Shown here piece by piece: positions 2,065-53,579 of a stretch of DNA of 64,000 bases; position 1 is the stretch's first letter; each line of letters starts with the position of its first letter. The stretch is from an uncultured bacterium (GTDB taxonomy: Bacteria > Eisenbacteria > RBG-16-71-46 > JABDJR01 > JAWXBZ01). The notes under the pieces are model-generated. The model was given only the letters and a program-made list of their open reading frames with translations. It was not told the origin of the DNA and searched no databases. The position numbers and the translations under genes are program-made. Location of the stretch: the NCBI GenBank assembly GCA_964596775.1, contig CAZQVN010000007.1, positions 27,275 to 91,274 of the forward strand, in the 5' to 3' direction.

Positions 2065-4953
2065 ATGCCGCGATTCCCGCGAACAGGAGCACCTCCGCAC
2101 AGCAACACCCGCCGGCGCCCCGGGCCCGCGATGTTCGCCGGCCTCCTGGCGGTGGCGGCGGCCGCGCTGCTCTCCTCCGTCGCAACGGCCGGTCCCCCTC
2201 CACCCGACCCGATCTACCGGCAGACCGGCTACTGGGAACCCCCGTACGACTGGGCCGGCCGCGGAACGCACATGGCGCTGTTGCGCGGAACGGATTCGCA
2301 CAGCCAGATCATCTTCTGGCACTCCGGCGACGGCGTGCGGATCTGGAAATGGAACCCCGGCGACAGTCTCTCGGCCTCGAGTCCGATTCTTCTGCGACCG
2401 ACCCCGGGCACGGACGTTCACTGCGCGGGCGAATCGATGCTCACCGACGGCCGGCTCTACGCCACCGGCGGCAACGAGGTCCTCGGGATCGACGAGGTCA
2501 ACATCTACGACCCGGTCACCACGCAGTGGACCCAGCAGCCGCTCGACATGGAGTATCACCGCTGGTACCCCACGAACACGACGCTGGCCGACGGCCGGGT
2601 GCTGATCACCGCGGGGCTGATGTTCCAGGAATACGTGGGCTTCGGCGGGCGGGACGACACCCAGGTCCACGACGACCTGGCGGTGCTCGGCATGAGGAAC
2701 CCGAGCGCGAACCTGTGGATCCCCTCGCAGGCCGCGGCACCGCGGCCTTCCGCCCGGGAGGATCACACCGCGATCTTCGACAATGCCCTCGGCGCCACGA
2801 CCTCGAACAATTATCGGTTTCAGCACCGGACGGTGATCTTCGGCGGCCGGTCCTTCGGCGGCCCGCCGATGTCCGACGTGTGGGCGCTTCACCGCAGCGA
2901 GTTTTCCGAGTGGAGCTGGACGCAGCAGTTCCCCGCCGCCGACGCCCTGTGGGGAGCACCCGCGGCCCGGAGTGGTCACGCGGCCGCCTTCGACCGCCCG
3001 GACTCGAGCATGGTCGTGATCGGCGGAACCGATGCCGCCGGCCAGCCGCTCGGCGATGTCTGGAAGCTGTTCCTCTACCGGAGCGGGGGCGGCCTGTGGG
3101 CGCGCCTGTTTCCGGCCGGCGGCGACTCGACGCTGCCGCGCTCCGGACACACGGTCGTCTACGACGCCGCGGCGCGCCGGGTGATCCTCTTCGGGGGGCG
3201 GAGCGGTGCCGCGTACCACAACGACGTGTGGCAGCTGTCCCTTTCCGGAACTCCGGCGTGGACAAAACTGGTCACGACGGGAACGCCTCCGGCGCCGCGC
3301 GAGGGGCACGCCGCCCAGTTCGACACGGCGCGGAACCGGATGATCGTCTACGGAGGACGGAACGGATCGACGCCGTTCGGGGATGGCTTCACGCTCTCGC
3401 TCGGCGGCGGAACGCCCCAGTGGGCGGCGCTGACGCCGGCCCCCGACGCGCAGGCGGGAACCCCGGCGGCCCGGTTCGATGCCGCGGCCGCTTACGACGC
3501 CTACTCCGACCGCCTGCTGATTCACGGCGGCGACACCGACACGACGTCGGGCGCCGGTGCCGCCGGCGACTTCTGGGCCATCAACTTCTGGCCGGCCCCG
3601 GCCTGGCGGCGTCACCACGCGACCCTGCCCGCGGGAGGTCGCGCGGGGCACGCGGCGCTCCTCGATCCGCGGTTCCTCCACGCGCCGTACCCGGAGATCT
3701 ACGACCCCGACGCGGACACCTACACCCTGCTCGGCGACGCCCAAAAGGTGACGGTCTTCTATCCGAACATGTATCTCCTGCCGGGAGGCAAGGTCCTCAT
3801 GGCCGGAGCCCAGGTGTCCACGTTTCTCCTGAACCTGTCCACCGGCCAGTGGGAAACCCCGCCGTGGACGAACAGCGGATTCAGCGGCTTCACCGCGACG
3901 ATGTACCGCCCCGGCATGGTGCTCAAGTGCGGGGGCGCCGGCAACACGGGGGCCTCCACCACGAAGCGGATCGACCTTTCCGGCGACGTCCAGTCGGCCT
4001 CCTGGCAATCCGTGGCCGCCTCGCCGCCGCTGATCCCCCGCGTGCTCCAGAACCTGGTCGTCCTTCCGACCGGCGATGTGCTGGCCACCGGCGGCATGGG
4101 CGACCAGAACGTGGTGGCCACCGCCGTGCGGTACCCGCAGATCTGGAGCCCGGTCACGGATGCATGGACCGACTCCGCGCTCCTCGCCCCCGATCCCTGC
4201 GTGCGCGACTACCACTCGTCGTCGATTCTCCTGCCCGACGGACGGATCCTGTCGGCCGGAGGGGAGTTGAACGCCGGCCCCGGAGGTCGCGACAAGTTCC
4301 GCGCCTCGATCTTCTGGCCTCCGTACCTCTTCGACGCCGCGGGGGCACCGGCCGCCCGCCCGGAGGTGACCTCCTCCGACAGCGCCGCCGCCTACGGAGC
4401 CCCCTTCTCCGTCTGCACGCCGGCGGCGGCCTCGATCCAGAGCGTCTGCCTCATGCGACCCGCGGCCACGACGCACGGAGTGGACATGGAGGCGCGCTAC
4501 GTGCCGCTTGGCTTCAGCGTCAGCGGGAACTGCCTGTCCGTGACCGCCCCCCCGGACGGCAACACGGCGCCGCCCGGCCTGTACTTGCTCTATCTCGTGA
4601 CGCAGGACTCGGTGCCGTCGATCGGCCGCTGGATCCGCCTGGGCGCTCCGGTGTCCGGCGCGCCCCCCGCCGGGATCCGGACGCCGGAGCTGTCCGCCTA
4701 CCCGAATCCGTTCCGCGCCGGCACGCGGTTTCACTACGTCCTGGATCGCGGCGGACCGGTGTCGCTGGTCATCGTCGACGTGGCCGGAAGGGTCGTGCGC
4801 TCTCTCCTGGAATCGGAAACGGGCCGCGGCGCCCACGAGGCGGAGTGGAACGGGCTGGACGATCGAGGGGCGCCGGTGGCGGCGGGCGTCTATTTCGCGA
4901 GGCTGTCCACGGAGTCGGGAGTGAGCGTGAAGAAGGTGACGGTGAAACGGTAG
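2065..4953 (+). CDS. Secreted galactose-oxidase-like copper radical oxidase (AA5-like) with inserted Kelch propeller, DUF1929-like Ig domain and C-terminal FlgD-Ig/T9SS-like domain
   Basis: Signal peptide; DVHCAG, RWYPT, RDYHSSSILLPDGR and TTHG motifs; six Kelch GG repeats; C-terminal YPNPF...WNGLDDRG...GVYF. Confidence 0.85.
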   Translation: MPRFPRTGAPPHSNTRRRPGPAMFAGLLAVAAAALLSSVATAGPPPPDPIYRQTGYWEPPYDWAGRGTHMALLRGTDSHSQIIFWHSGDGVRIWKWNPGDSLSASSPILLRPTPGTDVHCAGESMLTDGRLYATGGNEVLGIDEVNIYDPVTTQWTQQPLDMEYHRWYPTNTTLADGRVLITAGLMFQEYVGFGGRDDTQVHDDLAVLGMRNPSANLWIPSQAAAPRPSAREDHTAIFDNALGATTSNNYRFQHRTVIFGGRSFGGPPMSDVWALHRSEFSEWSWTQQFPAADALWGAPAARSGHAAAFDRPDSSMVVIGGTDAAGQPLGDVWKLFLYRSGGGLWARLFPAGGDSTLPRSGHTVVYDAAARRVILFGGRSGAAYHNDVWQLSLSGTPAWTKLVTTGTPPAPREGHAAQFDTARNRMIVYGGRNGSTPFGDGFTLSLGGGTPQWAALTPAPDAQAGTPAARFDAAAAYDAYSDRLLIHGGDTDTTSGAGAAGDFWAINFWPAPAWRRHHATLPAGGRAGHAALLDPRFLHAPYPEIYDPDADTYTLLGDAQKVTVFYPNMYLLPGGKVLMAGAQVSTFLLNLSTGQWETPPWTNSGFSGFTATMYRPGMVLKCGGAGNTGASTTKRIDLSGDVQSASWQSVAASPPLIPRVLQNLVVLPTGDVLATGGMGDQNVVATAVRYPQIWSPVTDAWTDSALLAPDPCVRDYHSSSILLPDGRILSAGGELNAGPGGRDKFRASIFWPPYLFDAAGAPAARPEVTSSDSAAAYGAPFSVCTPAAASIQSVCLMRPAATTHGVDMEARYVPLGFSVSGNCLSVTAPPDGNTAPPGLYLLYLVTQDSVPSIGRWIRLGAPVSGAPPAGIRTPELSAYPNPFRAGTRFHYVLDRGGPVSLVIVDVAGRVVRSLLESETGRGAHEAEWNGLDDRGAPVAAGVYFARLSTESGVSVKKVTVKR

Positions 4954-10211: not shown

Positions 10212-11121
10212 GCCGGACCCCCAGCCTGTAGCGGGCTTCGCCGGTGGCCGGTTCCAGGTCCACCGCGGCCGTCGGAACGAGCCCGCGCGGTTCCTCATGG
10301 ATGATCAGGAAGAACGTGGCCAGGAACGCCGCCTCGCCGACCGCCCACCCCACGAGGGACAGCCGGTCGAATCGAACCGCATCGTCGAACAGCCGCTTCT
10401 GGCGGTCGCGGTTTCCCGTCCGCAGGTACGCGTCGTAGCGATCGTCCGCCTGGTCCTTGAAACGCACGGCCGTGTAGACGCCCGCGGCAAGCAGAGTGAC
10501 CGATCCGCCGATCGCCAGCGCCCTGTTGCGGGCCCACCAGGAACCCTCGGAGGCACGGAGCCGCGCCGGAACCGGCGGCGCGAGCGGGTCGAGCTCCACC
10601 CGCTTCGAACCGGAAACGCGGGTATCGGCCAGGACGCTGTCGCCGGGCAGCGTCACCCGGCGGTAGCCGTCGAGGTCCACGAGCAGATCGGTGCCCCACA
10701 GCAACTCCGGCGGCAGGCGCACCGGAGTTTCCCCGATCGTGCGGCCGCCGGCGAGCACCCGGGCTCCCGACGGAGAAGTAAGCAGAACCGGACGGCCGAG
10801 TTCCACGGTCACGGTATCCCCGGCGGCCCCGGTGATCGAGACCGATTCGAAGGGGGGCAGAAGGCTCCGGTCGGCGGGGCGGAGCAGAAGGGTATGCCGG
10901 CCCGGTGCCACCGGGACTTCCTGGATGGAAAACTCCGTCCAGGGAACCGGGGCGCGTTCGGAGTCTCCGGTCAGGTCGATCAGGTCGGCCCCGTCCATGA
11001 CGACCGTGCCCGGACGGAGCACCACGAGCCGGAGCAGCAGGCTTTCCGACGCGGCGGCGGCGTGCGGATGAGCCGGAACGAAGGTCAGCAGCGCGAGGAG
11101 CAATACGGAGCGCGGTTTCAT
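10201..11121 (-). CDS. Exported PEGA-domain protein with C-terminal hydrophobic helices
   Basis: Signal peptide MKPRSVLLLALL; LTSPSGARVLAGGRTIGETP...DLDGY (PEGA-like); ATGA overlap with the upstream gene. Confidence 0.65.
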   Translation of the reverse strand: MKPRSVLLLALLTFVPAHPHAAAASESLLLRLVVLRPGTVVMDGADLIDLTGDSERAPVPWTEFSIQEVPVAPGRHTLLLRPADRSLLPPFESVSITGAAGDTVTVELGRPVLLTSPSGARVLAGGRTIGETPVRLPPELLWGTDLLVDLDGYRRVTLPGDSVLADTRVSGSKRVELDPLAPPVPARLRASEGSWWARNRALAIGGSVTLLAAGVYTAVRFKDQADDRYDAYLRTGNRDRQKRLFDDAVRFDRLSLVGWAVGEAAFLATFFLIIHEEPRGLVPTAAVDLEPATGEARYRLGVRHGF

Positions 11122-12245
11122 GGTCTCTCCCCCGCCTCCGGGTCGCCCGGCAGGGCGGCAAAGTCGTAGGCCACGATGCGGCCGCGGTCGCCGGCCACGA
11201 TCCACAGGCCGCCGGCCGGCACCGGAGGCACGGATACCGTTTCGGGATGACGGACCCGCGCCACAACCTCCCCCGTCTCCGCGCGGAGAACCCAGACGAG
11301 TCCCGACGCGGCCGCCACGGCCACGACGGCACCGTCGCCGGCCGCGGTTGCGCGGAACGGCCCGCCGAGGGCAACGCGCCACGCGGTCGACCCGTCCGCG
11401 GTATCGACGGCGGCCACGCTTCCATCGAGGCCGGCCATCACGATGCGGGACCCCGACCATTCCGGGCGGGAGGTCACCCGCATTCCCAGTTCCGCTTTCC
11501 AGAGGCGGTTTCCGGTGACGGCGTCGAGAAAGTCGAGCCGACCGTCCACCGAGGCGGCTGCCACCCGCTTCCCGAGGGCGGCAATGCCGCAGAGCGCACT
11601 CCCCACGTCGGCGGACCAGCGCTTTTCGCCGCTCCGCGCATCGACCGCGAAGACTTCACCGTTGCGCCCTGGGACGAGGAACAGCGCGTTCTCCCTGTCC
11701 AGCACCGGCGGGCCCCAGACATCGGCATTGAGATTCGTGACCCAGATGGGACGCCCCTCGTGGGGCGACAGGCCGAAGACGCGGCCGTCCCGGGTGGCCA
11801 GGAGTACGGCGCCCTCGAAGAAGAAGGCGCTTCCCGTCACCTCGCCGACTTCATGCCTCCAGCGGACCTTCTTCTTCCCGAGGTCGAACATGTACGCCGA
11901 GCCGTCCGGAACCGACGTTCCGGCAAACAGGGTGCCGTCATGCAGCGTCAGGCTCCCGGTTGCCGAGCCGTCGATCCGTTTCCTCCAGCGCCGGCGACCG
12001 GTGTCGGGGTCGTACTGGACGATCCGCCGGTCGGTGGTGGCCACGTACAGCGCGCCCGCCTCGAACAGGAGCGGCACCTCGATCCCCCGCCCGGCATCCT
12101 CGGACCAGGCCACGGCAGCGGCGGGAAGGGCGTCGAATCCATGCGGCGCGAGAGCCTCGCCCCGGCCCGAGCCCGCGCACCCGTTCAGGCCCCAGAGACA
12201 GGCGGCGGCCAGCAGGAGGAATCGGCGGTTAATAGTTGAATCCAA
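11118..12245 (-). CDS. BamB-like PQQ-repeat beta-propeller lipoprotein
   Basis: Lipobox LNG-C; repeated A.D..TG...W tryptophan-docking motifs. Confidence 0.85.
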   Translation of the reverse strand: MDSTINRRFLLLAAACLWGLNGCAGSGRGEALAPHGFDALPAAAVAWSEDAGRGIEVPLLFEAGALYVATTDRRIVQYDPDTGRRRWRKRIDGSATGSLTLHDGTLFAGTSVPDGSAYMFDLGKKKVRWRHEVGEVTGSAFFFEGAVLLATRDGRVFGLSPHEGRPIWVTNLNADVWGPPVLDRENALFLVPGRNGEVFAVDARSGEKRWSADVGSALCGIAALGKRVAAASVDGRLDFLDAVTGNRLWKAELGMRVTSRPEWSGSRIVMAGLDGSVAAVDTADGSTAWRVALGGPFRATAAGDGAVVAVAAASGLVWVLRAETGEVVARVRHPETVSVPPVPAGGLWIVAGDRGRIVAYDFAALPGDPEAGERP

Positions 12246-15093
12246 TGAAGAAGTCCGTATCCGTTCTCCGGGTCACCGTCCTGAAATCGGTGGTCCGGGT
12301 GAAGTCGAACCTGAGAACGAGAAACCCGCCCAGGCTCGTCCGCAGGCCGAGGCCGAACGCGCCGAACGGCGTGGGAACACCCTCCCCTTCCTCCCAGGCG
12401 TTGCCGGCATCCGCGAGCAGGGCGCCCTGCACGGGCGGCAGCCCGATGTTGCCGAACGGAAACCCGAGAAGGACGCCGTCGAGCAGCGGGAAACGGAGTT
12501 CATTGTTCCACAGCAGCGAACGGCTGCCAAACAGCGAGCGCCGGGGGAAACCGCGGAGCGAATGCGAGCCCCCGAGCACGAAACGCTGCCGGTTCGTACC
12601 CTCCGATATCCGCCCCTGGAGCCGGACGGCGTACCCGGAGCGGAAACCGATCCGGAAGTAGCGCCTCAGGTCGGCGATCACCGCCACGTTTTCCACGTTG
12701 GCCCGCTCGAGATCCGTGGTCACGCCGACTGCGAGGTTGTAGCGGCTTCCGTCGATCGGCCCCAGCGGGTTCCACAGGCTGTTGTCGTGGATCAGCGACA
12801 GGTAGTTCGTGGCCAGGACCGCGGTTCTCGCCTGCCGGAAGGAATCGTCGGAGCGATCCGAGTGGAACAGGAACAGCGAGGACTCGATCCTGTCGAACTT
12901 GGAAAACGGATAGCTGCCGATGAAGTTGACGCCGGCGCGCCGCTCGAAGTAGCGGAAGTCGCGCTCGTCGAGGAAGTCGCCGGCGAAGTGATACGCGCCG
13001 GCTCCGTAGTTGAACCGCCGGGTCAGGTTGAAGTAGGTGAAGCCGGCGTTGAACCGGGAGAGAAGGTCGCCGGTCGTTTCCGCGGTGTTCGACAGCTGGA
13101 AGAAGATGAGCTGGTCGCCGAGCTGGTCGGTCAGGAGCGCCTGCAGCCCCTCGCCGGACCCCAGTCCCGGGTCCACCGCCACGCCGCCCTGGGCAAAATC
13201 GAGGGAGAAACGCTTGCGGTACGGGATCGTTTCGGCCCGGACGTTCTCCATCCCGTCCTCGACACCCCACGGCAGCCGCATCTCCGTCGAATCGGGCGGC
13301 GAGCCTCCAGCCGGCGCGGCGAGGGAGGCCAGCGGCTCGGAATAGACCAGCGGTCCGTCCGCGGCCTCCACGGAGTCGATGCGGTAGATTCCGTAGCGAA
13401 GGCGATGGTACGCCGTGTAGAGGAACCCGTCGTCCGCCGGAAGCCAGACCGGGTCGAACGCCCCCCCCTGCAGCGACGTCACCCGGAATCCATGCCCGTC
13501 GAGATCGGTGACATGGATCTGCGGAGCGCCCGACCGATCGCTGACGAACGCGATCCGGTCGCCGGCGTGCGACCAGGCCGGGGCCCCGTCCTCGAAATTG
13601 CCCCGGGTGACGGCGCGGATCAGCCCGGTATCACGGTCGAAGAGGAAGATGTTGCGCGATCCGCTGCGGCCGTCCGGCGTCCGGTCCGAGGAAAAGGCGA
13701 TCCGTCTGCCGTCCGGGGAAAACGCGGGATCGAGGTCCTGGTACCAGTCGGCGGTCAGCTTTTCCAGCCGTTCGTCGTCGAGGTGGAACAGGTACAGGTC
13801 GGAGTGGCCGTTCTGCGAGAGGCCGGAAAACGCGACGAGCCGGCCGTCGGGGCTCTGCACCGGCGAGAGGATCCCGTTCAGCCCCTCGAACTGGTAGCGG
13901 GCGATCTGCCGGCGCTTCTTCAGGTCGTAGAGGAACAGCGCGTCGCGCTCGTGGAACTTGGAGGTGAAGACGAGGCGGCCGTCGTGCCCCACGTCGATGC
14001 GGCTCTGGAACGGATGGAGGGATTCGTACTCGGCGGTGCGCTCGCCTTCGACGATGACGTCCAGGTCCTTTTCCTCGCCGGCGATCGAGGCCATGTAGAT
14101 GTTCGTGTATCCGCTGCGCGGCGAGACGAAGAGAAACCGGTCCTCGCCGAGCCCGGCCGACGCCGGAACCAGCGTCGGCTTGAAGGACGGTCCGCGGACC
14201 GCGAGTGGCTTGCCGTCCTCGGTGGGGGTCCGGGCCATCTCGATGCCGGGATAGAAACGGAGCTTGAGCCGGCGGTGCCACTTTTCGGAGAGCTCCCGTT
14301 CCGAAATGCCGAGCGTGATGTTCAGAACGTCGCTGAACGAACGTCCCTTCCAGAGGTTCTGGTACAGCGCGGGAATGGCGTCCGGGCCGTATTCCTCCTC
14401 GATGAAACCGCAGAGATCCTGGCCGACCTTGTAGATCGTGAACGATCCGTAGAAGCGCCAGAGGTCGGGAATGGCCGGCAGCTGGTTCGAAAGCACGAGA
14501 TCCCGAAGGACCATCTCCCCGATGCCGTCCCACTTTCCCGACCAGAGATCGGCCATCCCCTCCGACATCCAGAGCGGCGCGTCCACCGGCTGTCCGCGAT
14601 AGTGCCGGCCGTACACGCTTTCAAGGATGGAGAGCTGGTACACGTGCACGAGTTCGTGATGGATCGTGGAGCGGAAATCCGACATCGAGCCGTTGAACGG
14701 AATGGCCACCCGCCCCTTGATGAACTCGGTGAATCCGGCCACGCCCTCCGGAAGAAAGAACGGGCTGATGTTCGTCTGCTCGAAGTCCTGGTGGCTGGCA
14801 TAGATGATCAGCGGAATGCGATGGTCCACATGCCAGGCAAAGCGCACCGCGAGGTCGGCGAACGACTCCTCGGCCATCGCCAGCGCGATGGTCGCCAGCG
14901 ATTCCTCTTCCGGATAGAAGAACAGATCGAAGTGGGGGCTCTTCAGCACGCGCCACTGAAAGTCCGTGTACTGAATCTTGTTCTTGCCGAAACTGATCGT
15001 CTGGCCCGAAGCGGGCTTCGGCGCCAGGCAGAGCAGTGCCAGGGCCAGCAGGAACGGCGGGGTGAGGAGGCCACGCCGGAGCGGAACAGTCAC
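12229..15093 (-). CDS. Omp85/BamA-family protein: peptidase-MA-like domain + PD40/TolB-like propeller + beta-barrel, no POTRA visible
   Basis: HELVH and LWMSEGMA; PD40 repeats (PAFSPDGRRIAFSSDR); barrel with LGGSHSLRGF and terminal FFIGFNY. Start GTG 15093 behind GAGGAGG, downstream of the promoter. Confidence 0.85.
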   Translation of the reverse strand: MTVPLRRGLLTPPFLLALALLCLAPKPASGQTISFGKNKIQYTDFQWRVLKSPHFDLFFYPEEESLATIALAMAEESFADLAVRFAWHVDHRIPLIIYASHQDFEQTNISPFFLPEGVAGFTEFIKGRVAIPFNGSMSDFRSTIHHELVHVYQLSILESVYGRHYRGQPVDAPLWMSEGMADLWSGKWDGIGEMVLRDLVLSNQLPAIPDLWRFYGSFTIYKVGQDLCGFIEEEYGPDAIPALYQNLWKGRSFSDVLNITLGISERELSEKWHRRLKLRFYPGIEMARTPTEDGKPLAVRGPSFKPTLVPASAGLGEDRFLFVSPRSGYTNIYMASIAGEEKDLDVIVEGERTAEYESLHPFQSRIDVGHDGRLVFTSKFHERDALFLYDLKKRRQIARYQFEGLNGILSPVQSPDGRLVAFSGLSQNGHSDLYLFHLDDERLEKLTADWYQDLDPAFSPDGRRIAFSSDRTPDGRSGSRNIFLFDRDTGLIRAVTRGNFEDGAPAWSHAGDRIAFVSDRSGAPQIHVTDLDGHGFRVTSLQGGAFDPVWLPADDGFLYTAYHRLRYGIYRIDSVEAADGPLVYSEPLASLAAPAGGSPPDSTEMRLPWGVEDGMENVRAETIPYRKRFSLDFAQGGVAVDPGLGSGEGLQALLTDQLGDQLIFFQLSNTAETTGDLLSRFNAGFTYFNLTRRFNYGAGAYHFAGDFLDERDFRYFERRAGVNFIGSYPFSKFDRIESSLFLFHSDRSDDSFRQARTAVLATNYLSLIHDNSLWNPLGPIDGSRYNLAVGVTTDLERANVENVAVIADLRRYFRIGFRSGYAVRLQGRISEGTNRQRFVLGGSHSLRGFPRRSLFGSRSLLWNNELRFPLLDGVLLGFPFGNIGLPPVQGALLADAGNAWEEGEGVPTPFGAFGLGLRTSLGGFLVLRFDFTRTTDFRTVTRRTDTDFFIGFNY

Positions 15094-15133
15094 GAAAAGA
15101 TCGCCTCCTCGACACGGGGAGAAAACTGCCCAA

Positions 15134-15163
15134 AGTCTAGTGACCAAAGGACTTCCCTGTCAA
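15134..15163 (-). promoter_or_regulatory. sigma70 promoter of the Omp85 operon
   Basis: Minus strand TTGACA (15163-15158)-18 nt-TAGACT (15139-15134). Confidence 0.7.
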
Positions 15164-28408: not shown

Positions 28409-29032
28409 ATGCTGCGTCGATTCCCCGCCGCCTCAGCGGCCCTGTTCGCGGCCGCTCTTCTGGCTGTTCTCCCGGCCGACGTCCATGCCGGGACCTGGTT
28501 CGACCTCGGCCTGGCCCGGCACGACACGCTGCGGGCCGAACAGGACCCGCGCACGCTCGAAGTGTTTCCTCCGAGCGCCTTCGGCGTGTTTCCCCGGGGC
28601 AGCTGGGTCTGGCAGGAAATCAACCTGGCTCCCTGCAGCGAACTGCGCTGGCCCGGCCAGGTGTGCGGAACGTTCGTCCGGGGCTTCCGGATCGAGTTCA
28701 ACGACGGAGGCTGCGGTTGCGGGGGTTACGTGGAGCGGTCCTCCACGCTCCGGCTGGCCTGGGATCCCGCGGCGCTGGCCGAAAGAGGAATACCGGCTTC
28801 GCGGCTGCGCCTCGTCTTCAACTACAACCCGCCCGTGAGCATCTACAACATCCCGGGCAGCCGTGCCTGGGGGCCGGTCGAGGGCGCGGTTCCCGATGTC
28901 GTGAATCACTGGTTCGAGATTCCGGTTGCCGGCGACATCCTGGGAATCCGGGAATACGCGATCGTGACCGACGACTTCGTTCCGACCCTCGCGGTCACGT
29001 GGAGCCGCATCAAGTCCCTGTATGACCGCTGA
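28409..29032 (+). CDS. Secreted hypothetical protein with TWSRIKSLY C-terminal tail
   Basis: Signal peptide ending VHA; ends VPTLAVTWSRIKSLYDR. Confidence 0.75.
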   Translation: MLRRFPAASAALFAAALLAVLPADVHAGTWFDLGLARHDTLRAEQDPRTLEVFPPSAFGVFPRGSWVWQEINLAPCSELRWPGQVCGTFVRGFRIEFNDGGCGCGGYVERSSTLRLAWDPAALAERGIPASRLRLVFNYNPPVSIYNIPGSRAWGPVEGAVPDVVNHWFEIPVAGDILGIREYAIVTDDFVPTLAVTWSRIKSLYDR

Positions 29033-30014
29033 CCCGGCCACCGGCCGGGTCGGAGCGATTCTTCGTCTGCGGGCTGCCGGCCGCCGTTTCGCGCTTCCGG
29101 CCTGTCTCGCCGTCGGACTTTTCCTCGCCCCCGCCGCGCGCGGCCAGGGGTGCTGCACTCCGGGATCGAGCCCGCTCGGCGGCCTGTCGGGGTCGCTTCC
29201 CGCCCCCGGCGACGTTCAACTCGGCGCGTGGATGGAGTCGTTTCATCTCGACCAGGCGTATCGCGGCCCGGAAAAGGTCACGGAGGTCAACAGGCGCGAG
29301 GGTCACGTGGCGCGGATCGCCGTGTTCGCCCGCATCGGCCTGCCGGCCGGCACGGCACTCCTCGTGGAGTGGCCCTACGAAATCCGCGGCCGCGACCAGG
29401 TCATCCGGACCGAGTCGCAGAACCTCGAGTTCGATTTCGACAACCGGGCGCCCGGCGACCTCTCCACGATGCTGCTCGTAACGGTCTGGCCGCGGAACGG
29501 CGTGTCCCCCTGGGGGCTGGAGGCCGGCGCCGGAATCAAGTGGGCCAACGGCTCCGTGGACCGCACCGATGACGGGCGCTTTCTTCCGGTGGAACTCCAG
29601 AGCGGCACCGGCTCCGTGGATCCGCTCCTGTCGCTCTCGGCGCGACGCGCCTGGGCAGAGTGGTCGATCCAGGCCGCGGCGATCACCCGGATCGCCACGA
29701 CGGGGCGCAACGAGTACCGGTTCGGCTCGGAGTGGAACGTGGTCACCGGCGTTCACTGGGCCGCCCACCGGAACGTGGCGCTGGGCGCCGATGCGCGGCT
29801 TCGTCACGCTGCCCCCGATGAAATCGGCGGACGCGTACCGCAGAACACGGGAGGCACGCGACTCTTGGCCGGGCCGCGGCTGACGGGCACGATCCGGCCC
29901 GTCCGGCTCCAGGCCTACGGCGCCCTGCTCCTGCCCGTCCGACAGGACCTGAAGGGGACGCAACTCGGTGTGAGCCGGCAGTTCCTCGTCGGGCTGACCT
30001 GGCCGGCGGGTTGA
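29022..30014 (+). CDS. Putative outer-membrane beta-barrel 'transporter' (MetA-pathway/SphA-like)
   Basis: Signal peptide then QGCC; amphipathic strands; LP.ELQSGTGS.D motif; ends FLVGLTWPAG. Confidence 0.6.
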   Translation: MTADPATGRVGAILRLRAAGRRFALPACLAVGLFLAPAARGQGCCTPGSSPLGGLSGSLPAPGDVQLGAWMESFHLDQAYRGPEKVTEVNRREGHVARIAVFARIGLPAGTALLVEWPYEIRGRDQVIRTESQNLEFDFDNRAPGDLSTMLLVTVWPRNGVSPWGLEAGAGIKWANGSVDRTDDGRFLPVELQSGTGSVDPLLSLSARRAWAEWSIQAAAITRIATTGRNEYRFGSEWNVVTGVHWAAHRNVALGADARLRHAAPDEIGGRVPQNTGGTRLLAGPRLTGTIRPVRLQAYGALLLPVRQDLKGTQLGVSRQFLVGLTWPAG

Positions 30015-35367: not shown

Positions 35368-35925
35368 TCAGCCGGCCCGGATCCAGGCCCTGAACCCGAC
35401 CAGCGCCAGCAGCCCGAGGATCGTCCGAAGGGTCGGCCACTCCTGCGTCAGCGCGGTTGCCGTGACCACCGGGCCCCTGACCCCGGCGTTCCGCCCATCG
35501 CGGAAGGACCGCCAGGCCGCCCCCCACTCCTCTTCGAGAAAGAGATCCTCGCGACGGGTGAACAACCCGTACTGAATCAGGAACAGGGCCCCGAACAGGA
35601 GCGGAAACCAGGGAAGAAACGCGCGTGACGCCACGAGAAACCCGGCACAGAGGAGCAGGTTGCCGGCATACAGGGGATGGCGCAGCAGCGCGTAGGGGCC
35701 GGACGTGACCAGAACCGGAGCGCGCAGCGACCGTCCGCGCGAGTGCGCGCCGATGTGGGACACCGCCCACACGCGGAGAGCCTCGCCGGCGAGGATCAGC
35801 CCTGCTCCGAGCAGGAAGGACAGCGTGGACGGTCGCGCTCCCCAGACGAGCAGGACGGCAAACGGAACCGCGGTGACCCCGCGGTTCCGGAACAGCCACC
35901 CGCCGAGCCGGGCAACGAACGTCAG
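35368..35925 (-). CDS. Isoprenylcysteine carboxyl methyltransferase / PEMT family membrane protein (start uncertain, possibly CTG)
   Basis: [31 protein letters not shown]; no ATG/GTG/TTG near the expected N-terminus. Confidence 0.8.
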
Positions 35926-38276
35926 GGGGCGACCGTCGTGCCGGTTCTGAGGATCTTGAGGGTTCGGACGTGCCCTCCGCCCGACAGGCGGACGAAGTAG
36001 AGGCCGGGCGGTGCGGCGCTTCCGTTGGCGAAGGTGCCGTCCCAGGCGGCGTGCCCGCCCGCGTCCGAGCGGAGTTCCCGCACGAAGCGGCCCGCCGCAT
36101 CGAGGATCCGAGCCGTGAACGCCGCCGCTTCCGTTCCGGGAACATGCGTGAAGATGATCGAGCCTCCGAACGGGTTCGGGCTCGCGAACCAGTCCGCCGG
36201 CAGCGGCACGGGCGGTGCCGCGCTCCGCACGGTGAAGTTCGCCGGCCCCGCGGTGGACACGATGCCGAGATCGTCGATGAGATCCACCGTCCATGTGTAG
36301 TTCCCCGGAGCCAGGTTCAACAACAGGTTCGGGCCGGGGGACTCGTGCACGAGCGGCCCCGACGCTTCAGGATCGCCGGAGTCCAGCCGGACGATGAATC
36401 GCCCCGCGGGTCCGGGCCGCGGATCTTCCCACGAAAGCCGGACCGCGGCGAGTCCGCCGGCCGGATCCGTATCGTCCACGACGGCATCCGCCTGGGCGAA
36501 GGACACCGGCGGCAGGACCCGGATCCTCCTGCGGACGGGAACCCGCTCCGCCGTGCGCACGGCCCCGCTCCGCCAGACGATGGTCACCCGGTCGACCGTT
36601 TCGCTCTCTCCCAGCCCGAACCACGCCTCGAGCGGGGCCATGGAACAGAATCCGGCGCCGGCGAGGATCTCGCGAAATGTCGTGTGCCCCCCCGCCTCGA
36701 CGGACACGCAGGCACCGACCGCATCCTTGTTGCCGTTCTCCCCCCGGGGCACGAAGACAACCCAGGCGTTGTTGTTCCCCGAGTTTTCGAACAGCAGCGT
36801 CGGCGAGAGGCCGGACAGTTCCATCGCCCCGGAGGGCACGATGATGTCCAGGTCGCCGTCGTTGTCGGCGTCGGCCGCGGTCATTCCGTGCCCGGCCCCC
36901 TTGTTCACGAGACCCATCGCCCGGCTGACTTCCGCGAACGTTCCGTTTCCGAGATTGCGGTACACCTTGTCCGATTCGACCCGCTGCTCCTCCGGTCCGC
37001 CGCGGGCCACGTAGAGATCGATCCAGCCGTCGTTGTCGAAATCCATGAACGCGGACCCCATCGGCCCCCCCATCGAGGCCACGCCGGCCGCGGCGCCGAT
37101 CTCGGTGAACACCCCGCCCCCCTCGTTGCGGAAGAGCCGGTCGGGATATCCCGGGAAGTAGGCGTGCGTTCCGTAGTTGAACGTCCCGACGAACAGGTCG
37201 AGGTCGTTGTCGCGGTCGAAATCCCCCGCGGAGGCCGGAAAGCCGCCTTCGAAGTCCGCGAGACCCGATTCTTCCGACACGTTCACGAACGTGCCGTCGC
37301 CGTTGTTCAGGAACAGGCGGTTGCCGTATTCGACGAACTCGTCCGGATCCTCCTCCGCGGCCGGTTCCACGTGACAGCGGCAGTCCACGCAGCGGCATTC
37401 ACCGTCCGGGCACGAGCAGGCACCGTGGTGACCGGCCGGGTCGCCGGTTTCGGGGGTCGATCCATCCTCGCCGGACCCCGGACCGGCATTGAACGGAACG
37501 GGACCGGTGATCGCCCCGCCGTGCATGGCGTGCGGCGATGTCGCGGCGATCGTGGAGTGCCGGTTCGTGAAGAAGAGGTCCGGATCCCCGTCCTGGTCCG
37601 CGTCGAAGAACAGCGCCTGCTGCGAGAACGCCCAGGTCCGCACGCCGGCCCTGTCGGTGACGTCCTCGAAGTTCAGCGCTCCGCGGTTCAGAAAGAGCCG
37701 GTTGTCCCCCTTCGTGTATCCGTCGATGACCCGGCAGATGAACACGTCGAGGAATCCGTCGTTGTCGACGTCGCACCACGACGAGGAAAAATTCATGCCG
37801 GTGAGGGCGAGTCCGGCGGCGCCGGGGACCTCGGTGAAGTAGCCCCTGCCGTCGTTCAGGAGGAGCCGGTTCGCCTGGGGGATCGCCGGAACGCGCGACT
37901 GGTAGCCGCCGCAGGTGAGAAACAGGTCGGAGTCGCCGTCGTTGTCCACGTCGACGAACGCCACGCCGAACGGAGAGTCGAGCTCGGGAATCCCGCGTTC
38001 CGCGGTGACCTCCTCGAACTTCAGGCCGCCGCGGTTGACGTACAGGTGGAATCCCCCCTCCTGCAGCGCCACCCCGAGATCGGAACGGCCGTCGCCGTCG
38101 ATGTCCGCCCAGGCGCTGCCCCTTCCCCGCCCGATGAGCCGGACGCCGGCTTCGCCGCTGATTTCGACGAACGGAGCGGCAAGGGAAGGCCCCGGTGACG
38201 CCGTCGACGTCGCGTCACCGGGGTGGATCAGGAACGCTCCGCACACGAGTGCGCGAAGCAGTCCACGATGCTTCAC
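35922..38276 (-). CDS. CRTAC1-like FG-GAP/ASPIC-UnbV secreted protein with Cys-rich insert and FlgD-Ig C-terminus
   Basis: D.D.DG..D repeats, ASPIC/UnbV FGLG motif, SPNPF...WDG...GLYF; start placed at GTG 38276. Confidence 0.85.
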   Translation of the reverse strand: MKHRGLLRALVCGAFLIHPGDATSTASPGPSLAAPFVEISGEAGVRLIGRGRGSAWADIDGDGRSDLGVALQEGGFHLYVNRGGLKFEEVTAERGIPELDSPFGVAFVDVDNDGDSDLFLTCGGYQSRVPAIPQANRLLLNDGRGYFTEVPGAAGLALTGMNFSSSWCDVDNDGFLDVFICRVIDGYTKGDNRLFLNRGALNFEDVTDRAGVRTWAFSQQALFFDADQDGDPDLFFTNRHSTIAATSPHAMHGGAITGPVPFNAGPGSGEDGSTPETGDPAGHHGACSCPDGECRCVDCRCHVEPAAEEDPDEFVEYGNRLFLNNGDGTFVNVSEESGLADFEGGFPASAGDFDRDNDLDLFVGTFNYGTHAYFPGYPDRLFRNEGGGVFTEIGAAAGVASMGGPMGSAFMDFDNDGWIDLYVARGGPEEQRVESDKVYRNLGNGTFAEVSRAMGLVNKGAGHGMTAADADNDGDLDIIVPSGAMELSGLSPTLLFENSGNNNAWVVFVPRGENGNKDAVGACVSVEAGGHTTFREILAGAGFCSMAPLEAWFGLGESETVDRVTIVWRSGAVRTAERVPVRRRIRVLPPVSFAQADAVVDDTDPAGGLAAVRLSWEDPRPGPAGRFIVRLDSGDPEASGPLVHESPGPNLLLNLAPGNYTWTVDLIDDLGIVSTAGPANFTVRSAAPPVPLPADWFASPNPFGGSIIFTHVPGTEAAAFTARILDAAGRFVRELRSDAGGHAAWDGTFANGSAAPPGLYFVRLSGGGHVRTLKILRTGTTVAP

Positions 38277-38360
38277 TGGAAACCTCCAGGTTTCCGGCTC
38301 GGGGAAGCCCGAAGCCTCGTCCACATTACGGCCGCGGCACCAGGCCGGACCGGTCCGTTC

Positions 38361-40619
38361 TCACTTGACCAGAGTCATCGTCCTTCCGGAAAGCGCGTCG
38401 CCTTCCAGCCGGTACATGTAGACTCCGGCCGGGACACTGCGGCCTGCCTCGTCGCGTCCGTCCCACACGACTTCATGCTGTCCCGGTCCGGCAAGAATCT
38501 CGAGGCGGCGGACCAGCCGCCCGGTCGGCGCCACGACGTGGATCACGGCCCGGCCCGAGGAGGCCAGCGTGACCGGGATCGTCGTCAGCGGATGAAACGG
38601 ATTCGGATGATTCGGGCCGAGCCGCGCCGCGGCCGGCAGAGGCGCGGTAAAGAGAATCGGGCCGAACCACTGGCTGGCGCCGGAACGGGACACGGCTTCC
38701 AGGCGGTACTCGTAGCTGCGGCCCGGTTCGACCGTGGTGTCCGTCCATTCCCCCCGCGATTCCGACCCGGTGATGAGGGCGCCAGAAACCGGGAGAAACG
38801 CGCCTTCCGAGTCCGCGCGGCGGTGAACGCGGAATCCGGCGTGATCCACCGCATCGGTGAACTCCCAGCGGATCAGCGCCCCATCGCCCGCCGCCGCGGC
38901 GGTGAAGGCAACGAGACGAACCGGCACGGCGCCCTGAACCAGGGTGATCCGCTGGTTGACCGCGACGTTTTCCAGGACCTCGACCGGATGGCCCGGCGTC
39001 GGCCAGCGCACGGTCACGCGGTCGATCACGTTCACGTTGCCGAGACCGAAATGCAGGCAGTGCTCGTTGGCCGACATGTACGACCCGGCTCCGAGTTCAC
39101 GCATCATCGTGCGACCGCCCGCCTCAACGGTGACCCGCACGCCCAGGCAGCTGCGATTGCTCGAGGTGCCGACGAAGTCGAACACCACCCACTTGTTGTC
39201 CAGCTCGGGAGCCGACAGCGGATGGGGCAGCAGAGCGCCGGTGGTGCGGAGCCCGGAGGTCACCGACCAGTCGTAGAACGTCTTGTTCTTCTGATTGATG
39301 AGCAGGAGACGGCTGCCGGCGTTGTAGTTGCAGTTCACGTGCGGCCAGTCCGTGTTGTTCAGGACGACCATGTCGATCCAGCCGTCGCGGTTGATGTCGC
39401 CGTACGCCGAGCCGCGGGCATCGCCGAAGTCCTGGATTCCCGACTCCACCGCGCGGTTCACGAACCCGGCCGGGCCGAGGTTTTCCCAGAGGGCATTCCC
39501 CTCGCACTCGGTCTGCCCCCAGCTGTTCAGGATCCAGCCGTTCACGTTCAGGGCGTCGAGATCCCCGTCGTTGTCGTAGTCGCGCCAGGCCACGCCCCAG
39601 CCGTTCAGGTTTTCGACGATCCCCTTTTCCGCCGCCACGTTCCGGAACGTGCCGTCCCCCTGGTTCTCGAGGAGGGAATCCTCCCAGAAGTTGGCGAGGT
39701 AGATGTCCAGGTCGCCGTCGTTGTCGTAGTCGCCGAAGTCCACACCCATGGCGTAGCCGCCGTCCCGCGTTCCCGACTCCGCGGTGACGTTCGTGAACGT
39801 CTTGTCGCCGTTGTTGCGAAACAGGACGTTGTCGCCGTCGCGGATCGACTGGTCCGGGTTCAGCCCGCCGTAGTCGTTGGCCAGGTAGAGATCGATGTCG
39901 CCGTCATTGTCGTAGTCGCCGGTGGCGATGCCCAGCGTCCATTCGCTCTGGCCGCCGAGCCAGCCCAGCCCCTTCTCGTCCGTCTTGTCCACGAAAATCG
40001 GGTTGTTGTTCTCGTCGAGGCCGGTGTTCTCGTAGAAGTGATTCTTGGCGTTGACGAGGTCCACGTCTCCGGCCGGCTTCGGAACCATCGTCAGGTAGTT
40101 GGCCACGTAGAGGTCGAGGTCGCCGTCGAGGTCGTAATCGAAGAACGCCGCGCTGGCGGTCAGGGTCCCTCGCACATACGACTTGAGGCCGGCCGTCCGG
40201 GTGATCTCGGTGAAGCTGCCCTGCCCGGTGTTCTTGAACAGGCGGTAGGGGGTGTCCATGGAGGTCGGCGGGAACGGGCCGAACGTCACCAGAAAGTCCT
40301 CGTAACCGTCGTTGTTGACGTCGCCGCAGGCGAACCCCATTCCGTTCGCGTTGAACTGCGCTCCGGCCATGGCCGTGGCGGTCATGTTGGTGAAGCGGAG
40401 CAGGCCGTCGTTGCGAAAGACCTCGACCTTCCCATCCTGGGTGGTCAGGAAGAGGATATCGAGGTCGCCGTCGCGGTCGTAATCCATGAGGGCGGTGCCC
40501 GATCCCATCATGTTCGGGCCGGGTCCGGCGGTGACGGCCGGCGGCAGCAGAGTCGTCGCGGCAATTAGAGCGGCAACGCACAGGAGCACAGGCATTCTCA
40601 AAGCCGATCTCATCAGCAC
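38361..40619 (-). CDS. CRTAC1-like FG-GAP/ASPIC-UnbV secreted protein with FlgD-Ig C-terminus
   Basis: GDYDNDGDLD repeats, GSYMSANEHCLHFGLG, HPNPF...WDGRDEAGRSVPAGVY. Confidence 0.88.
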   Translation of the reverse strand: MLMRSALRMPVLLCVAALIAATTLLPPAVTAGPGPNMMGSGTALMDYDRDGDLDILFLTTQDGKVEVFRNDGLLRFTNMTATAMAGAQFNANGMGFACGDVNNDGYEDFLVTFGPFPPTSMDTPYRLFKNTGQGSFTEITRTAGLKSYVRGTLTASAAFFDYDLDGDLDLYVANYLTMVPKPAGDVDLVNAKNHFYENTGLDENNNPIFVDKTDEKGLGWLGGQSEWTLGIATGDYDNDGDIDLYLANDYGGLNPDQSIRDGDNVLFRNNGDKTFTNVTAESGTRDGGYAMGVDFGDYDNDGDLDIYLANFWEDSLLENQGDGTFRNVAAEKGIVENLNGWGVAWRDYDNDGDLDALNVNGWILNSWGQTECEGNALWENLGPAGFVNRAVESGIQDFGDARGSAYGDINRDGWIDMVVLNNTDWPHVNCNYNAGSRLLLINQKNKTFYDWSVTSGLRTTGALLPHPLSAPELDNKWVVFDFVGTSSNRSCLGVRVTVEAGGRTMMRELGAGSYMSANEHCLHFGLGNVNVIDRVTVRWPTPGHPVEVLENVAVNQRITLVQGAVPVRLVAFTAAAAGDGALIRWEFTDAVDHAGFRVHRRADSEGAFLPVSGALITGSESRGEWTDTTVEPGRSYEYRLEAVSRSGASQWFGPILFTAPLPAAARLGPNHPNPFHPLTTIPVTLASSGRAVIHVVAPTGRLVRRLEILAGPGQHEVVWDGRDEAGRSVPAGVYMYRLEGDALSGRTMTLVK

Positions 40620-51983: not shown

Positions 51984-53579
51984 ATGCAACCGAAGACGAA
52001 CTACGTCCGCCCCTTTCTTTTCCTCCTCGCCGGGGCCCTGCTCTTCACGGCCGTGCCCGCCCGCGCGCAGGATGCCATCGTCACCGGAACCCTGAATTAC
52101 GTCAGCGGCCTTCCCGGCAACGAGGTCTATCGCTACGACTACACGCTGGAAAACGTGTCCGTCACTCCGGCTGTCCAGACCCTGCTCGTCTTCTTCGACT
52201 CGAATCCCGCAACCCAGATCTTTGACGGCAGCGACGACGCCGATTTCATCTCGGCCACCGGCCCCTCCGTCGACTGGGAAGTGACGCCGATCGTTCCGAC
52301 CGACCCGGATGCCTGGTACGTGGAGTTCGCCAACTTCACCTCGCTCGGCGCCGAGCCCGGCGATGTCATCAGCGGCTTCAGCGTGGAATTCCGCTGGAAG
52401 AACCCGAACACGCTTCCCCCCTGCGAACAGTTCTTCGAGGCGATCAACGGCCGCGCCCATGAGGGCGTGTCCTCGACGCTGATCGGTTCCGTTTCCCCGC
52501 GAAACGGCGTGCTCTCCGGCTTCGTGACCGGCTGCACCAACGCACCGCTGGCCGGCGTCACCGTGGACATCTTCCGCGACGGCACCCTCATCGGCAGCGC
52601 CCTGACGAACGCCTCGGGCGCCTACTCGTTCAGCCCGCTGACCCAGGGGGGCTACACCATCAACGTCGTGACGCCGATCGGCTACACGATCGTGGAAGAA
52701 CTTCCGAACAACTGCGACGACGGCATTCACGTCAACTTCGTCCTCCAGTGCCAGACCGTCGAGAACGCGCCGCGGACGATCGGTTACTGGAAGCACCAGA
52801 TGAGCGTCCACATCACCGGCCGGGGGAAGGCCCAGGAAACGAAGACGAATGTCCTCTCGTACCTGGACACGATCTACAATCATTTCCACCTCAACGGAAT
52901 CCACCCGGTTTCCGTGTATACGGTGGACCCGAGCGCGGCCGCGAGCGTGAAGCTGGCCACCGCGGACGACATCCTGACCGTCAACGGCAGCAAGCTCATG
53001 AACCTCCGGGCGCGCCAGCAGCTCATGGCCCTTCTGCTCAACGTCGCCTCCCTGAAGCTCGGCCAGAACCAGGTCATCAGCGCGGACGGACGGACGGTCA
53101 ACCAGGCCATCACCTACGCGTGGGACCTGATCGCCGACGGCAACCCGGCCAACGACGAAACCGCCAAGACGATCGCCGACGAGATCAACAACGGGCGGAC
53201 GCTCGGAGCCGGCATCATCCCGGCCTCGACACCGGTCATCCTCTACAGCGTGCCGGTCATCGACGGCCCGTCCGTGGAAGCCCCGGTCGTGTCCGCGTTC
53301 CGCCTCGGCCAGAACTATCCGAACCCGATGAACCCGATGACGGTCATCCCCTTCCAGGTGGCCGCGGGCTCCGGATCGGCACCGGTGCGGATCTCGATCT
53401 TCGATCTCAGCGGCCGGCTCGTCCGGTCGGTGCTCGACACATCGCTCGACTCCGGCGATCACACCGTGACCTGGGACGGCACGGACGATTCCGGACAGAC
53501 GGTTCACTCCGGCATCTATTTCTACACGCTGACATCGGGCGGCCGCTCCGAAACGCGGAAACTTCACGTACTCAAGTAG
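51984..53579 (+). CDS. Secreted protein with N-terminal beta domain, carboxypeptidase-regulatory/CnaB-like domain and FlgD-Ig/T9SS-like C-terminus
   Basis: Signal peptide; T..SGAYSF..L..GGY; RTIGYWKH; QNYPNPMNP...WDGTDDSG...SGIYFY. Confidence 0.8.
   Translation: MQPKTNYVRPFLFLLAGALLFTAVPARAQDAIVTGTLNYVSGLPGNEVYRYDYTLENVSVTPAVQTLLVFFDSNPATQIFDGSDDADFISATGPSVDWEVTPIVPTDPDAWYVEFANFTSLGAEPGDVISGFSVEFRWKNPNTLPPCEQFFEAINGRAHEGVSSTLIGSVSPRNGVLSGFVTGCTNAPLAGVTVDIFRDGTLIGSALTNASGAYSFSPLTQGGYTINVVTPIGYTIVEELPNNCDDGIHVNFVLQCQTVENAPRTIGYWKHQMSVHITGRGKAQETKTNVLSYLDTIYNHFHLNGIHPVSVYTVDPSAAASVKLATADDILTVNGSKLMNLRARQQLMALLLNVASLKLGQNQVISADGRTVNQAITYAWDLIADGNPANDETAKTIADEINNGRTLGAGIIPASTPVILYSVPVIDGPSVEAPVVSAFRLGQNYPNPMNPMTVIPFQVAAGSGSAPVRISIFDLSGRLVRSVLDTSLDSGDHTVTWDGTDDSGQTVHSGIYFYTLTSGGRSETRKLHVLK

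Follow-up and report, generated by a model that had tools for sequence, protein, structure and literature searches.

Two genes within the stretch of Eisenbacteria DNA analysed here (64,000 nucleotides, 67% GC, termed the window) encode small proteins that share a short C-terminal peptide, called the TWG tail below; these proteins are referred to as carriers 1 and 2, and the domain preceding the tail as the passenger (Table 1). Both carriers start with a classical Sec signal peptide (MLRRFPAASAALFAAALLAVLPADVHA followed by G in carrier 1, and MKFRFRVSLAAAAVGLLVSAAAYA followed by L in carrier 2). At the other end, carrier 1 (28409..29032) reads ...FVPTLAVTWSRIKSLYDR (VPTLAVTWSRIKSLYDR) and carrier 2 (53592..54176) reads ...NPVPVENATWSGIKSLYR (VPVENATWSGIKSLYR), in each case up to the stop codon. 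A first-pass annotation of the window had described them as two signal-peptide proteins that are alike only at their ends, and this description is confirmed: the BLASTP alignment of carrier 1 with carrier 2 is confined to the last ~30 residues, and the 24-nucleotide segments starting at 28997 and 54144 are, as had been reported, identical at 22 of 24 positions, because they specify the same amino acids under a GC-rich codon bias. The pattern W[SGA].[IVLM][KR].[LIVMF][YFW] occurs twice in the six reading frames of the window, each time 1-2 residues ahead of a stop, and a degenerate DNA pattern for the tail likewise matches twice, versus 0.00 matches expected from 100 dinucleotide-preserving shuffles. 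Neither carrier matches a Pfam or NCBIfam model, and no T9SS C-terminal domain (CTD) is detected in either one, even at E <= 1.

Table 1. Tail-bearing genes, T9SS-type CTD proteins and other features of the window.
Feature	Coordinates	Strand	Description
Kelch/galactose-oxidase-like protein	2065..4953	+	FlgD_ig (T9SS-type) C-terminal domain
Propeller gene	11118..12245	-	BamB-like PQQ_2 propeller; overlaps the 3' end of 12229..15147
Protease-barrel protein	12229..15147	-	972 aa; Peptidase_MA_2, PD40 repeats and ShlB/FhaC-like C-terminal barrel
Tail carrier 1	28409..29032	+	207 aa; signal peptide ~residues 1-27; beta-sandwich passenger, linker, TWG tail
Linker and tail module, carrier 1	28976..29029	+	FVPTLAV-TWSRIKSLYDR; T of TW at 28997; fits the extended consensus
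Downstream partner of carrier 1	29022..30014	+	330 aa; signal peptide; QGCCTPGS motif; no Pfam or NCBIfam match
FG-GAP/ASPIC-UnbV protein	35922..38324	-	FlgD_ig-type C-terminal domain
FG-GAP/ASPIC-UnbV protein	38361..40619	-	FlgD_ig-type C-terminal domain
Neighbour of carrier 2	51984..53579	+	531 aa; Por_Secre_tail, FlgD_ig and CarboxypepD_reg matches; T9SS type-A CTD, no tail
Tail carrier 2	53592..54176	+	194 aa; signal peptide ~residues 1-24; beta-sandwich passenger, linker, TWG tail
Linker and tail module, carrier 2	54120..54173	+	NPVPVENA-TWSGIKSLYR; T of TW at 54144; fits the extended consensus

The gene following carrier 1 begins inside the carrier's tail: its ATG sits within the Y-D codons, giving an 11-nt overlap. 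Genes of this type are conserved downstream partners of the carrier 1 family (family 1), and the recurrence of the same pair in another locus (L122), there with a 4-nt overlap, suggests a translationally coupled two-gene unit. The family 1 passenger also contains, at residues ~96-107, an invariant FNDGGCGCGGY segment that places two Cys in a Gly-rich loop and that could be a metal or redox site. A possible classification of family 1 as a CGCGG rSAM-RiPP rested on a weak match only (E = 0.74) and was rejected as a chance similarity to the GGCGCGG motif.

Carrier 2 lies directly downstream of a CTD protein (51984..53579) whose N-terminal domain is homologous to the carrier 2 passenger (BLASTP, 30% identity, E = 3e-8), and this gene pair is conserved in a second Eisenbacteria contig (L121). 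Judged by this homology, carrier 2 is a paralogue of the adjacent protein, one bearing the tail and the other a CTD. Four window proteins carry the long CTD, which is used by this organism side by side with the short tail. Elsewhere in the window, the minus-strand protein of 972 residues has an unusual architecture, in that a protease is fused to an outer-membrane barrel.

Conservation in homologues of the two carriers

The families of carriers 1 and 2 comprise 17 and 21 homologues, respectively, the named ones being from Candidatus Eisenbacteria MAGs. Over both families, 35/38 homologues have [ST]-W-[GS]-x-[IVLM]-K no more than 14 residues from the C-terminus; taken separately, 17 homologues of carrier 1 and 19/19 full-length homologues of carrier 2 have the tail. 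In other words, the tail persists within two unrelated families among homologues with as little as 39-44% identity. W and K are invariant in both family alignments, and family 1 is looser downstream of K (SLLGE, ALYDGR), which marks T-W-x-x-[IL]-K as the hardest core; orthologues moreover tolerate 1-7 additional residues beyond the motif.

Distribution across genomes and metagenomes

Two scans extended the search beyond these families: one of one genome per GTDB species, using a DNA pattern that combines the tail with a stop codon, and the other of metagenome contigs, using T-W-G-x-I-K-x-L-Y-R without demanding a stop codon. Each found at least 120 loci. In Eisenbacteria and neighbouring uncultured phyla, hundreds of exported proteins that are otherwise unrelated to one another terminate in the tail. 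By the labels of their records, the genome-scan matches listed (120) include 39 from Eisenbacteria, 6 from Krumholzibacteriota, 4 from Gemmatimonadota, 3 from Latescibacterota and 1 from Zixibacteria, together with 7 in bins labelled Fibrobacteraceae, 8 from Bacteroidota of the Ignavibacteria/Kapaibacteria/Chlorobi type, ~45 without a taxon label and 7 with odd labels. All 120 of these listed matches are from MAGs and none from an isolate, several MAGs among them holding at least 3-4 tail loci each; indeed, all carriers found come from MAGs or metagenomes. A padded tail-profile search of a 5.8-billion-protein index, whose word index favours short proteins, returned 7 short fragments, 7/7 of which end in the tail.

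The seven oddly labelled loci (L016, L022, L032, L054, L104, L107 and L007) are in bins assigned to Thermotogae, Planctomycetota, Polyangiaceae, Verrucomicrobiia, Phycisphaera, Limnocylindria and Alphaproteobacteria; they are mostly on short contigs and may be either mis-binned FCB DNA or instances of genuine lateral spread. One family of 130-150-aa signal-peptide proteins (L007, L041, L047, L056, L072, L073, L082, L083, L087, L092, L105 and L114) ends in RTWG[SM]IK[AES]MFR before the stop and is the only carrier type among the listed Bacteroidota-labelled bins (Ignavibacteria, Melioribacter, Kapaibacterium and Chlorobiaceae). Its gene neighbours include Maf, EamA, SpoIID, PAP2 and DUF6055 genes, and it may represent a dedicated, one-protein use of the tag.

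Counting only tails that were not picked by the search patterns, the density is one tail per 18-41 kb (one per 32 kb in the window), which, extrapolated to a whole genome, points to a number of carriers of the order of 100. Both figures may be inflated, because the sampled DNA adjoins other tail genes.

C-terminal placement and its exceptions

Although (by design) the metagenome scan did not demand a stop codon, one follows the motif directly in 111/124 of the matches listed and within 7 codons in 122/124. Likewise, across six frames of 1.4 Mb of DNA, 297/303 occurrences of the six-residue core have a stop no more than 12 residues away. A rare internal copy (ERSWGQIKALF, at ~codon 2080 in frame 0 of the plus strand of locus L001) is followed by 81 further codons; this may be due to a frameshift, to read-through or to a lost stop.

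Other departures from strictly terminal placement came from an exhaustive representative profile search that used all 40 alignment columns, and hence is biased to family 2, and that gave 15 matches. Four of these, all SnoaL/DUF4440-like proteins, have more than one copy of the tail: P0046 and P0054 bear lipoprotein signal peptides and end in 4-5 tail modules in tandem; P0056 has one copy directly behind the signal peptide and a second at its end; and P0057 has a copy separating two domain repeats in addition to a terminal copy. Such copies are rare and come mainly from one family. If their arrangement (there being no functional data) is taken at face value, the tail peptide would be able to act without a free C-terminus and to be multiplied. 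Tandem and internal copies are suggestive of binding modules that gain avidity, being atypical of cleaved export signals; hence the tandem, internal and N-proximal copies together suggest a docking peptide over a classical cleaved sorting signal.

Carrier proteins and their gene neighbourhoods

To characterise the proteins to which the tail is attached, a set of 124 carriers was assembled from the genome-scan loci and the window, with genes called by clustering of all open reading frames and a GC3 filter. BLAST places these into 62 clusters, 42 of which are singletons. Carriers are small, with a median length from signal peptide to stop of 239 aa (interquartile range 201-260), versus 671 aa for T9SS-type CTD proteins at the same loci (p = 1.4e-9). 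Signal peptides were called by a simple heuristic rather than by SignalP. A lenient rule on the n-region and h-region is satisfied by 107/113 complete carriers, and a stricter rule by 56/65 carriers versus 130/340 GC3-filtered controls (odds ratio 10, p = 3e-13); the heuristic is permissive, inasmuch as 38% of the controls are positive. Depending on the rule, ~86-97% of carriers have a Sec-like N-terminus. Lipoboxes are rare (4/114 carriers).

The majority of passengers lack a Pfam match. Those with a match are of cell-surface types--namely, lamin-tail domain (LTD), beta-helix/NosD, NHL, DNRLRE, and choice-of-anchor J and Y--with Cleaved_Adhesin, CBM20, thioester domain, metalloproteases and cupredoxins as further examples. 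Some passengers are related to the PEP-CTERM proteins ScyF and PepA and to a myxosortase-dependent metalloprotease family; that is, these domains occur elsewhere with PEP-CTERM, MYXO-CTERM or T9SS sorting domains. No model of Pfam (2025) or NCBIfam release 20 matches more than 7 of 123 carriers and no NCBIfam family matches more than 4. These carriers include no match to a -CTERM domain model of NCBIfam release 20, and a T9SS CTD model is absent from the Pfam and NCBIfam families listed for them. Because no model is common to the carriers at large, the tail is unrepresented in both collections.

Within the neighbourhoods of tail genes, the only enriched genes encode histidine kinases, ABC transporters, Ser/Thr kinases, Lon and T9SS-CTD proteins, none of which is a receptor candidate. 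A CTD protein occurs within 8 kb of the tail gene in 42/121 loci; T9SS components themselves are not seen adjoining tail genes.

These results bear directly on what the first-pass annotation had proposed. It would have been refuted by a motif that is limited to the two window proteins, that is not specific to C-termini or that is equally common on cytoplasmic proteins. As it turns out, the tail is found in most homologues and in at least 120 further loci in each of two scans, is nearly always terminal and is enriched on signal-peptide proteins. Its mention of similar tails in FCB-adjacent candidate phyla likewise agrees with the matches listed from Eisenbacteria, Krumholzibacteriota, Gemmatimonadota and Latescibacterota.

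Module anatomy, selection and predicted structure

The module was delineated from 276 unique tails by reading the pattern at positions that the search patterns had left free. It spans ~18 residues: often a Cys, then a P-[TV]-P-[VT]-[ER]-x-[ST] segment and finally T-W-[GS]-x-[IVL]-K-[AS]-[LM]-[YF]-R ending in the carboxylate, which yields the extended consensus P-[TV]-P-[VT]-[ER]-x-[ST]-T-W-[GS]-x-[IVL]-K-[AS]-L-Y-R. Upstream of the core, the most frequent residues are P at -7 (30%), [TV] at -6 (77%), P at -5 (54%), [VTA] at -4 (82%), [ERKQ] at -3 and [ST] at -1. A Cys occurs at -10 to -8 in ~47% of the tails and anywhere from -20 to -5 in 58%; neither window carrier has it. In the orthologue alignments and the 276 tails, T/S, W, G/S and K are ~94-100% conserved, though the search patterns fixed or restricted these positions. 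A single terminal R is present in 258/276 tails (again demanded by the search patterns), and an RR end in 2/276. With only 4-7 residues beyond the invariant K and a mean hydrophobicity of about zero, the tail contains no transmembrane (TM) segment.

Among 243 tails from other genomes, all synonymous codons of T, G, L, Y and R and all three stop codons are used, and the GC content of the tail loci ranges from 34% to 74%. This free variation at wobble positions and in the stop codon implies that it is the peptide, not the DNA, that is under selection.

AlphaFold2 models based on the family alignments predict, for both carriers, a confident beta-sandwich, then a linker of low confidence and, at the end, a short helix (pLDDT ~50-65) that is not packed against the domain. 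For carrier 1 the mean pLDDT is 85.6, dropping to 47-67 over the last ~20 residues, with a helix at 198-205; for carrier 2 the mean is 82.8, with values below 50 at residues 178-184 and a helix at 186-190. If the tail is helical, then W, I and Y/F (together with K) share one face, and G and [AS] make up a small-xxx-small pair. Helix and strand are not clearly distinguished by hydrophobic-moment calculations for this segment, which would be ~2.5 turns long. Hence, of the earlier suggestion that the tail is an amphipathic helix lacking a TM segment, the latter part holds and the helix remains a low-confidence prediction. Fold searches with the carriers retrieved only generic beta-sandwich similarity (cohesin/YcnI-like, TM <= 0.43; ZU5-like, TM 0.47, the latter making the carrier 1 passenger weakly ZU5-like).

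Comparison with known C-terminal signals

A list of eight empirical criteria for C-terminal sorting signals has been given by Haft (bioRxiv 10.1101/2023.06.07.544157, section 5). The TWG tail meets six of these, namely 1, 2, 3, 6, 7 and 8: terminal position (111/124 tails directly before the stop; 297/303 cores within 12 residues of one); multiplicity (two copies in the 64-kb window and at least 3-4 loci in several MAGs); signature residues (T/S, W, G/S and K, at ~94-100%, though search-restricted); signal peptides on most carriers, as judged heuristically; unrelated passengers, that is, carrier pairs sharing only the signal (62 clusters, and the window pair, which aligns only at the tail); and exchange with other signals, in that homologues bear another signal or none (the adjacent T9SS-CTD paralogue, ScyF, PepA, the myxosortase-dependent family and choice-of-anchor J/Y). 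The two that it fails, a hydrophobic transmembrane segment after the motif (criterion 4) and a terminal cluster of 2-5 basic residues (criterion 5), are those that define the tripartite sortase/exosortase class.

Thus, like the signals of the LPXTG/sortase, PEP-CTERM/exosortase, MYXO-CTERM/myxosortase and GlyGly-CTERM/rhombosortase systems, the tail is at the extreme C-terminus, has many copies per genome and has a near-invariant signature; and, like those tripartite signals, it rides on signal-peptide proteins with unrelated passengers whose homologues bear a different signal. Unlike them, it lacks a TM segment, has one Arg where they have a cluster, is only ~10-18 residues long and occurs in rare tandem and internal copies. 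Without a TM segment and at this length, it cannot be the membrane-embedded substrate of an intramembrane sorting enzyme. A likeness to IPTL-CTERM (IPTLSEWG...) is not supported: there is no NCBIfam match, and IPTL-CTERM has a TM segment.

The tail resembles T9SS CTDs (type A, TIGR04183; PF18962; PF13860, FlgD_ig-like) in occurring on Sec-exported proteins of the FCB group, in the same genomes and on exchangeable passengers. It differs in that the CTD is a folded beta-sandwich of ~70-100 aa, whereas the tail is a 10-residue peptide without a CTD match and with much smaller cargo. Dockerin-cohesin modules, SLH domains and choline-binding repeats are similarly modular, attached through flexible linkers to unrelated secreted proteins and possible in tandem; but these are larger, independently folded or Ca-binding, and found mainly in Gram-positive envelopes, and Pfam and PDB sequence searches revealed no sequence or structural similarity of the tail to them. 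The beta-signal (YxF) of outer-membrane proteins, which is read in the periplasm, is also a C-terminal, aromatic-containing motif on exported proteins; in contrast to it, the tail is on soluble beta-sandwiches rather than barrels, ends in Arg rather than in an aromatic residue and lacks hydrophobic alternation. The PBP5/6 anchor and the MinD membrane-targeting sequence are comparable to the tail in that they are of similar length, are terminal and combine aromatic, aliphatic and basic residues. These anchors, however, are family-specific and conserved in physicochemical pattern only, whereas near-invariant residues of the tail recur in more than 60 families.

The earlier remark that no function has been described for such tails stands within the limits of the searches: the motif is undescribed in ~8.3 million full texts, Pfam, NCBIfam and the PDB (subscription-only literature and InterPro unintegrated signatures being outside the scope), and a PDB sequence search with the tail profile gave nothing relevant. 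The literature searched likewise yielded nothing relevant on Eisenbacteria secretion or on T9SS in the carrier phyla; a 2026 paper on the way T9SS substrates are anchored in dependence on LPS deals with complete CTDs and not with the TWG tail.

Discussion

The TWG tail is a conserved, self-contained module on mostly small, beta-rich, Sec-exported proteins of Eisenbacteria and related FCB-group candidate phyla. Its initial designation as a candidate C-terminal sorting or anchoring signal has gained support from its placement, its spread and its association with signal peptides; the function itself is an inference, without data on a receptor, on cleavage or processing, or on localisation. Probably the tail directs its carriers to a site in the cell envelope. 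More specifically, and tentatively, it is interpreted here as a non-covalent envelope docking or anchoring tag that is read by an as yet unidentified, conserved envelope protein. In this scheme the passenger would leave via Sec, with the module joined to it by a flexible Pro/Thr linker; the tail, probably folded into a short amphipathic helix, would be bound by the conserved envelope protein; and, once bound, it would hold the passenger non-covalently at a defined site in the envelope or on the surface, so that a minimal docking tag would stand in for a covalent sorting signal. The near-invariance of T, W, G/S and K across phyla argues for a protein reader rather than a generic lipid, and the tandem copies for non-covalent docking. 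This interpretation is limited by the absence of a partner gene in the neighbourhoods, by the low confidence of the helix, by the rarity of tandem and internal copies and by the permissiveness of the signal-peptide heuristic.

Its main rival, rather unlikely as matters stand, is that the tail is a true export signal for an outer-membrane translocon (either T9SS-like or unknown) that is read in the periplasm and perhaps clipped at the P-[TV]-P-[VT]-[ER] linker. In its favour are a distribution over FCB-group phyla that mirrors that of T9SS-type CTDs, the proximity of CTD proteins (42/121 loci, with four in the window), the exchange of the tail for a CTD among passenger homologues, the nearly exclusive C-terminal placement and the conserved linker motif upstream. 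Yet 10 residues is far below the ~70-100 aa of a folded CTD, the cargo sizes differ (medians of 239 versus 671 aa, p = 1.4e-9), T9SS components are not seen adjoining tail genes, and tandem, internal and N-proximal copies are unexpected for a translocation signal. Those same tandem copies would provide avidity to a receptor-independent amphipathic anchor that adheres directly to a leaflet of the membrane, to LPS or to an anionic polymer, as might be imagined by analogy with the C-terminal helices of PBP5/6 and the membrane-targeting sequence of MinD. The predicted helix, and the concentration of W, I, L and Y/F plus K and a terminal R in a short segment, are compatible with such an anchor, which nevertheless is improbable: lipid-binding helices keep a pattern and not specific residues, whereas T, W, G/S and K of the tail are ~94-100% conserved, and the segment has a mean hydrophobicity near zero and only ~2.5 turns.

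PDZ-type readers of C-terminal peptides are well established, and the location of the tail at the extreme C-terminus, mostly at a fixed distance from the carboxylate (111/124 end right at R), raises the question of whether it might be recognised by a PDZ protease or chaperone of the periplasm, serving as a degron, quality-control or maturation tag. This is more improbable still, inasmuch as a constitutive degron on ~100 unrelated proteins per genome is hard to explain, orthologues accept 1-7 residues past the motif, and internal and tandem copies lack a free carboxylate. That the tails have no shared function at all, but reflect chance, convergence through codon bias, a mobile DNA cassette or a fold element, might be supposed from the window alone, where there are only two copies sharing 22/24 nt. 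Against 0.00 chance matches expected, hundreds of carriers with free synonymous variation, and tails that are detached from the domain on unrelated folds, this is scarcely credible, chance and DNA-level explanations being excluded.

A broader form of the docking interpretation is that the tail addresses proteins to a hitherto undiscovered pathway of envelope sorting or surface docking that handles ~100 small exported proteins per genome in Eisenbacteria, Krumholzibacteriota and Gemmatimonadota-, Latescibacterota- and Fibrobacterota-like lineages; this is conceivable, though more doubtful than docking as such. If true, it would be the first case of C-terminal sorting in bacteria by a ~10-residue peptide with neither a TM segment nor a folded domain, and such a signal would widen the range of C-terminal sorting signals known from bacteria. 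Being portable and only 10-18 residues long, the tag would also lend itself to surface display. Phylogenetic profiling is how exosortase and myxosortase were discovered, and the tail offers a handle for locating its cognate receptor or enzyme in the same way. If the tail is an address tag, then it provides a simple sequence rule for predicting envelope and surface proteins in these phyla, and it labels a large part, unrecognised until now, of the proteins exported by abundant uncultured phyla of soils and sediments (at an extrapolated density of one carrier per roughly 20-40 kb, which is possibly inflated).
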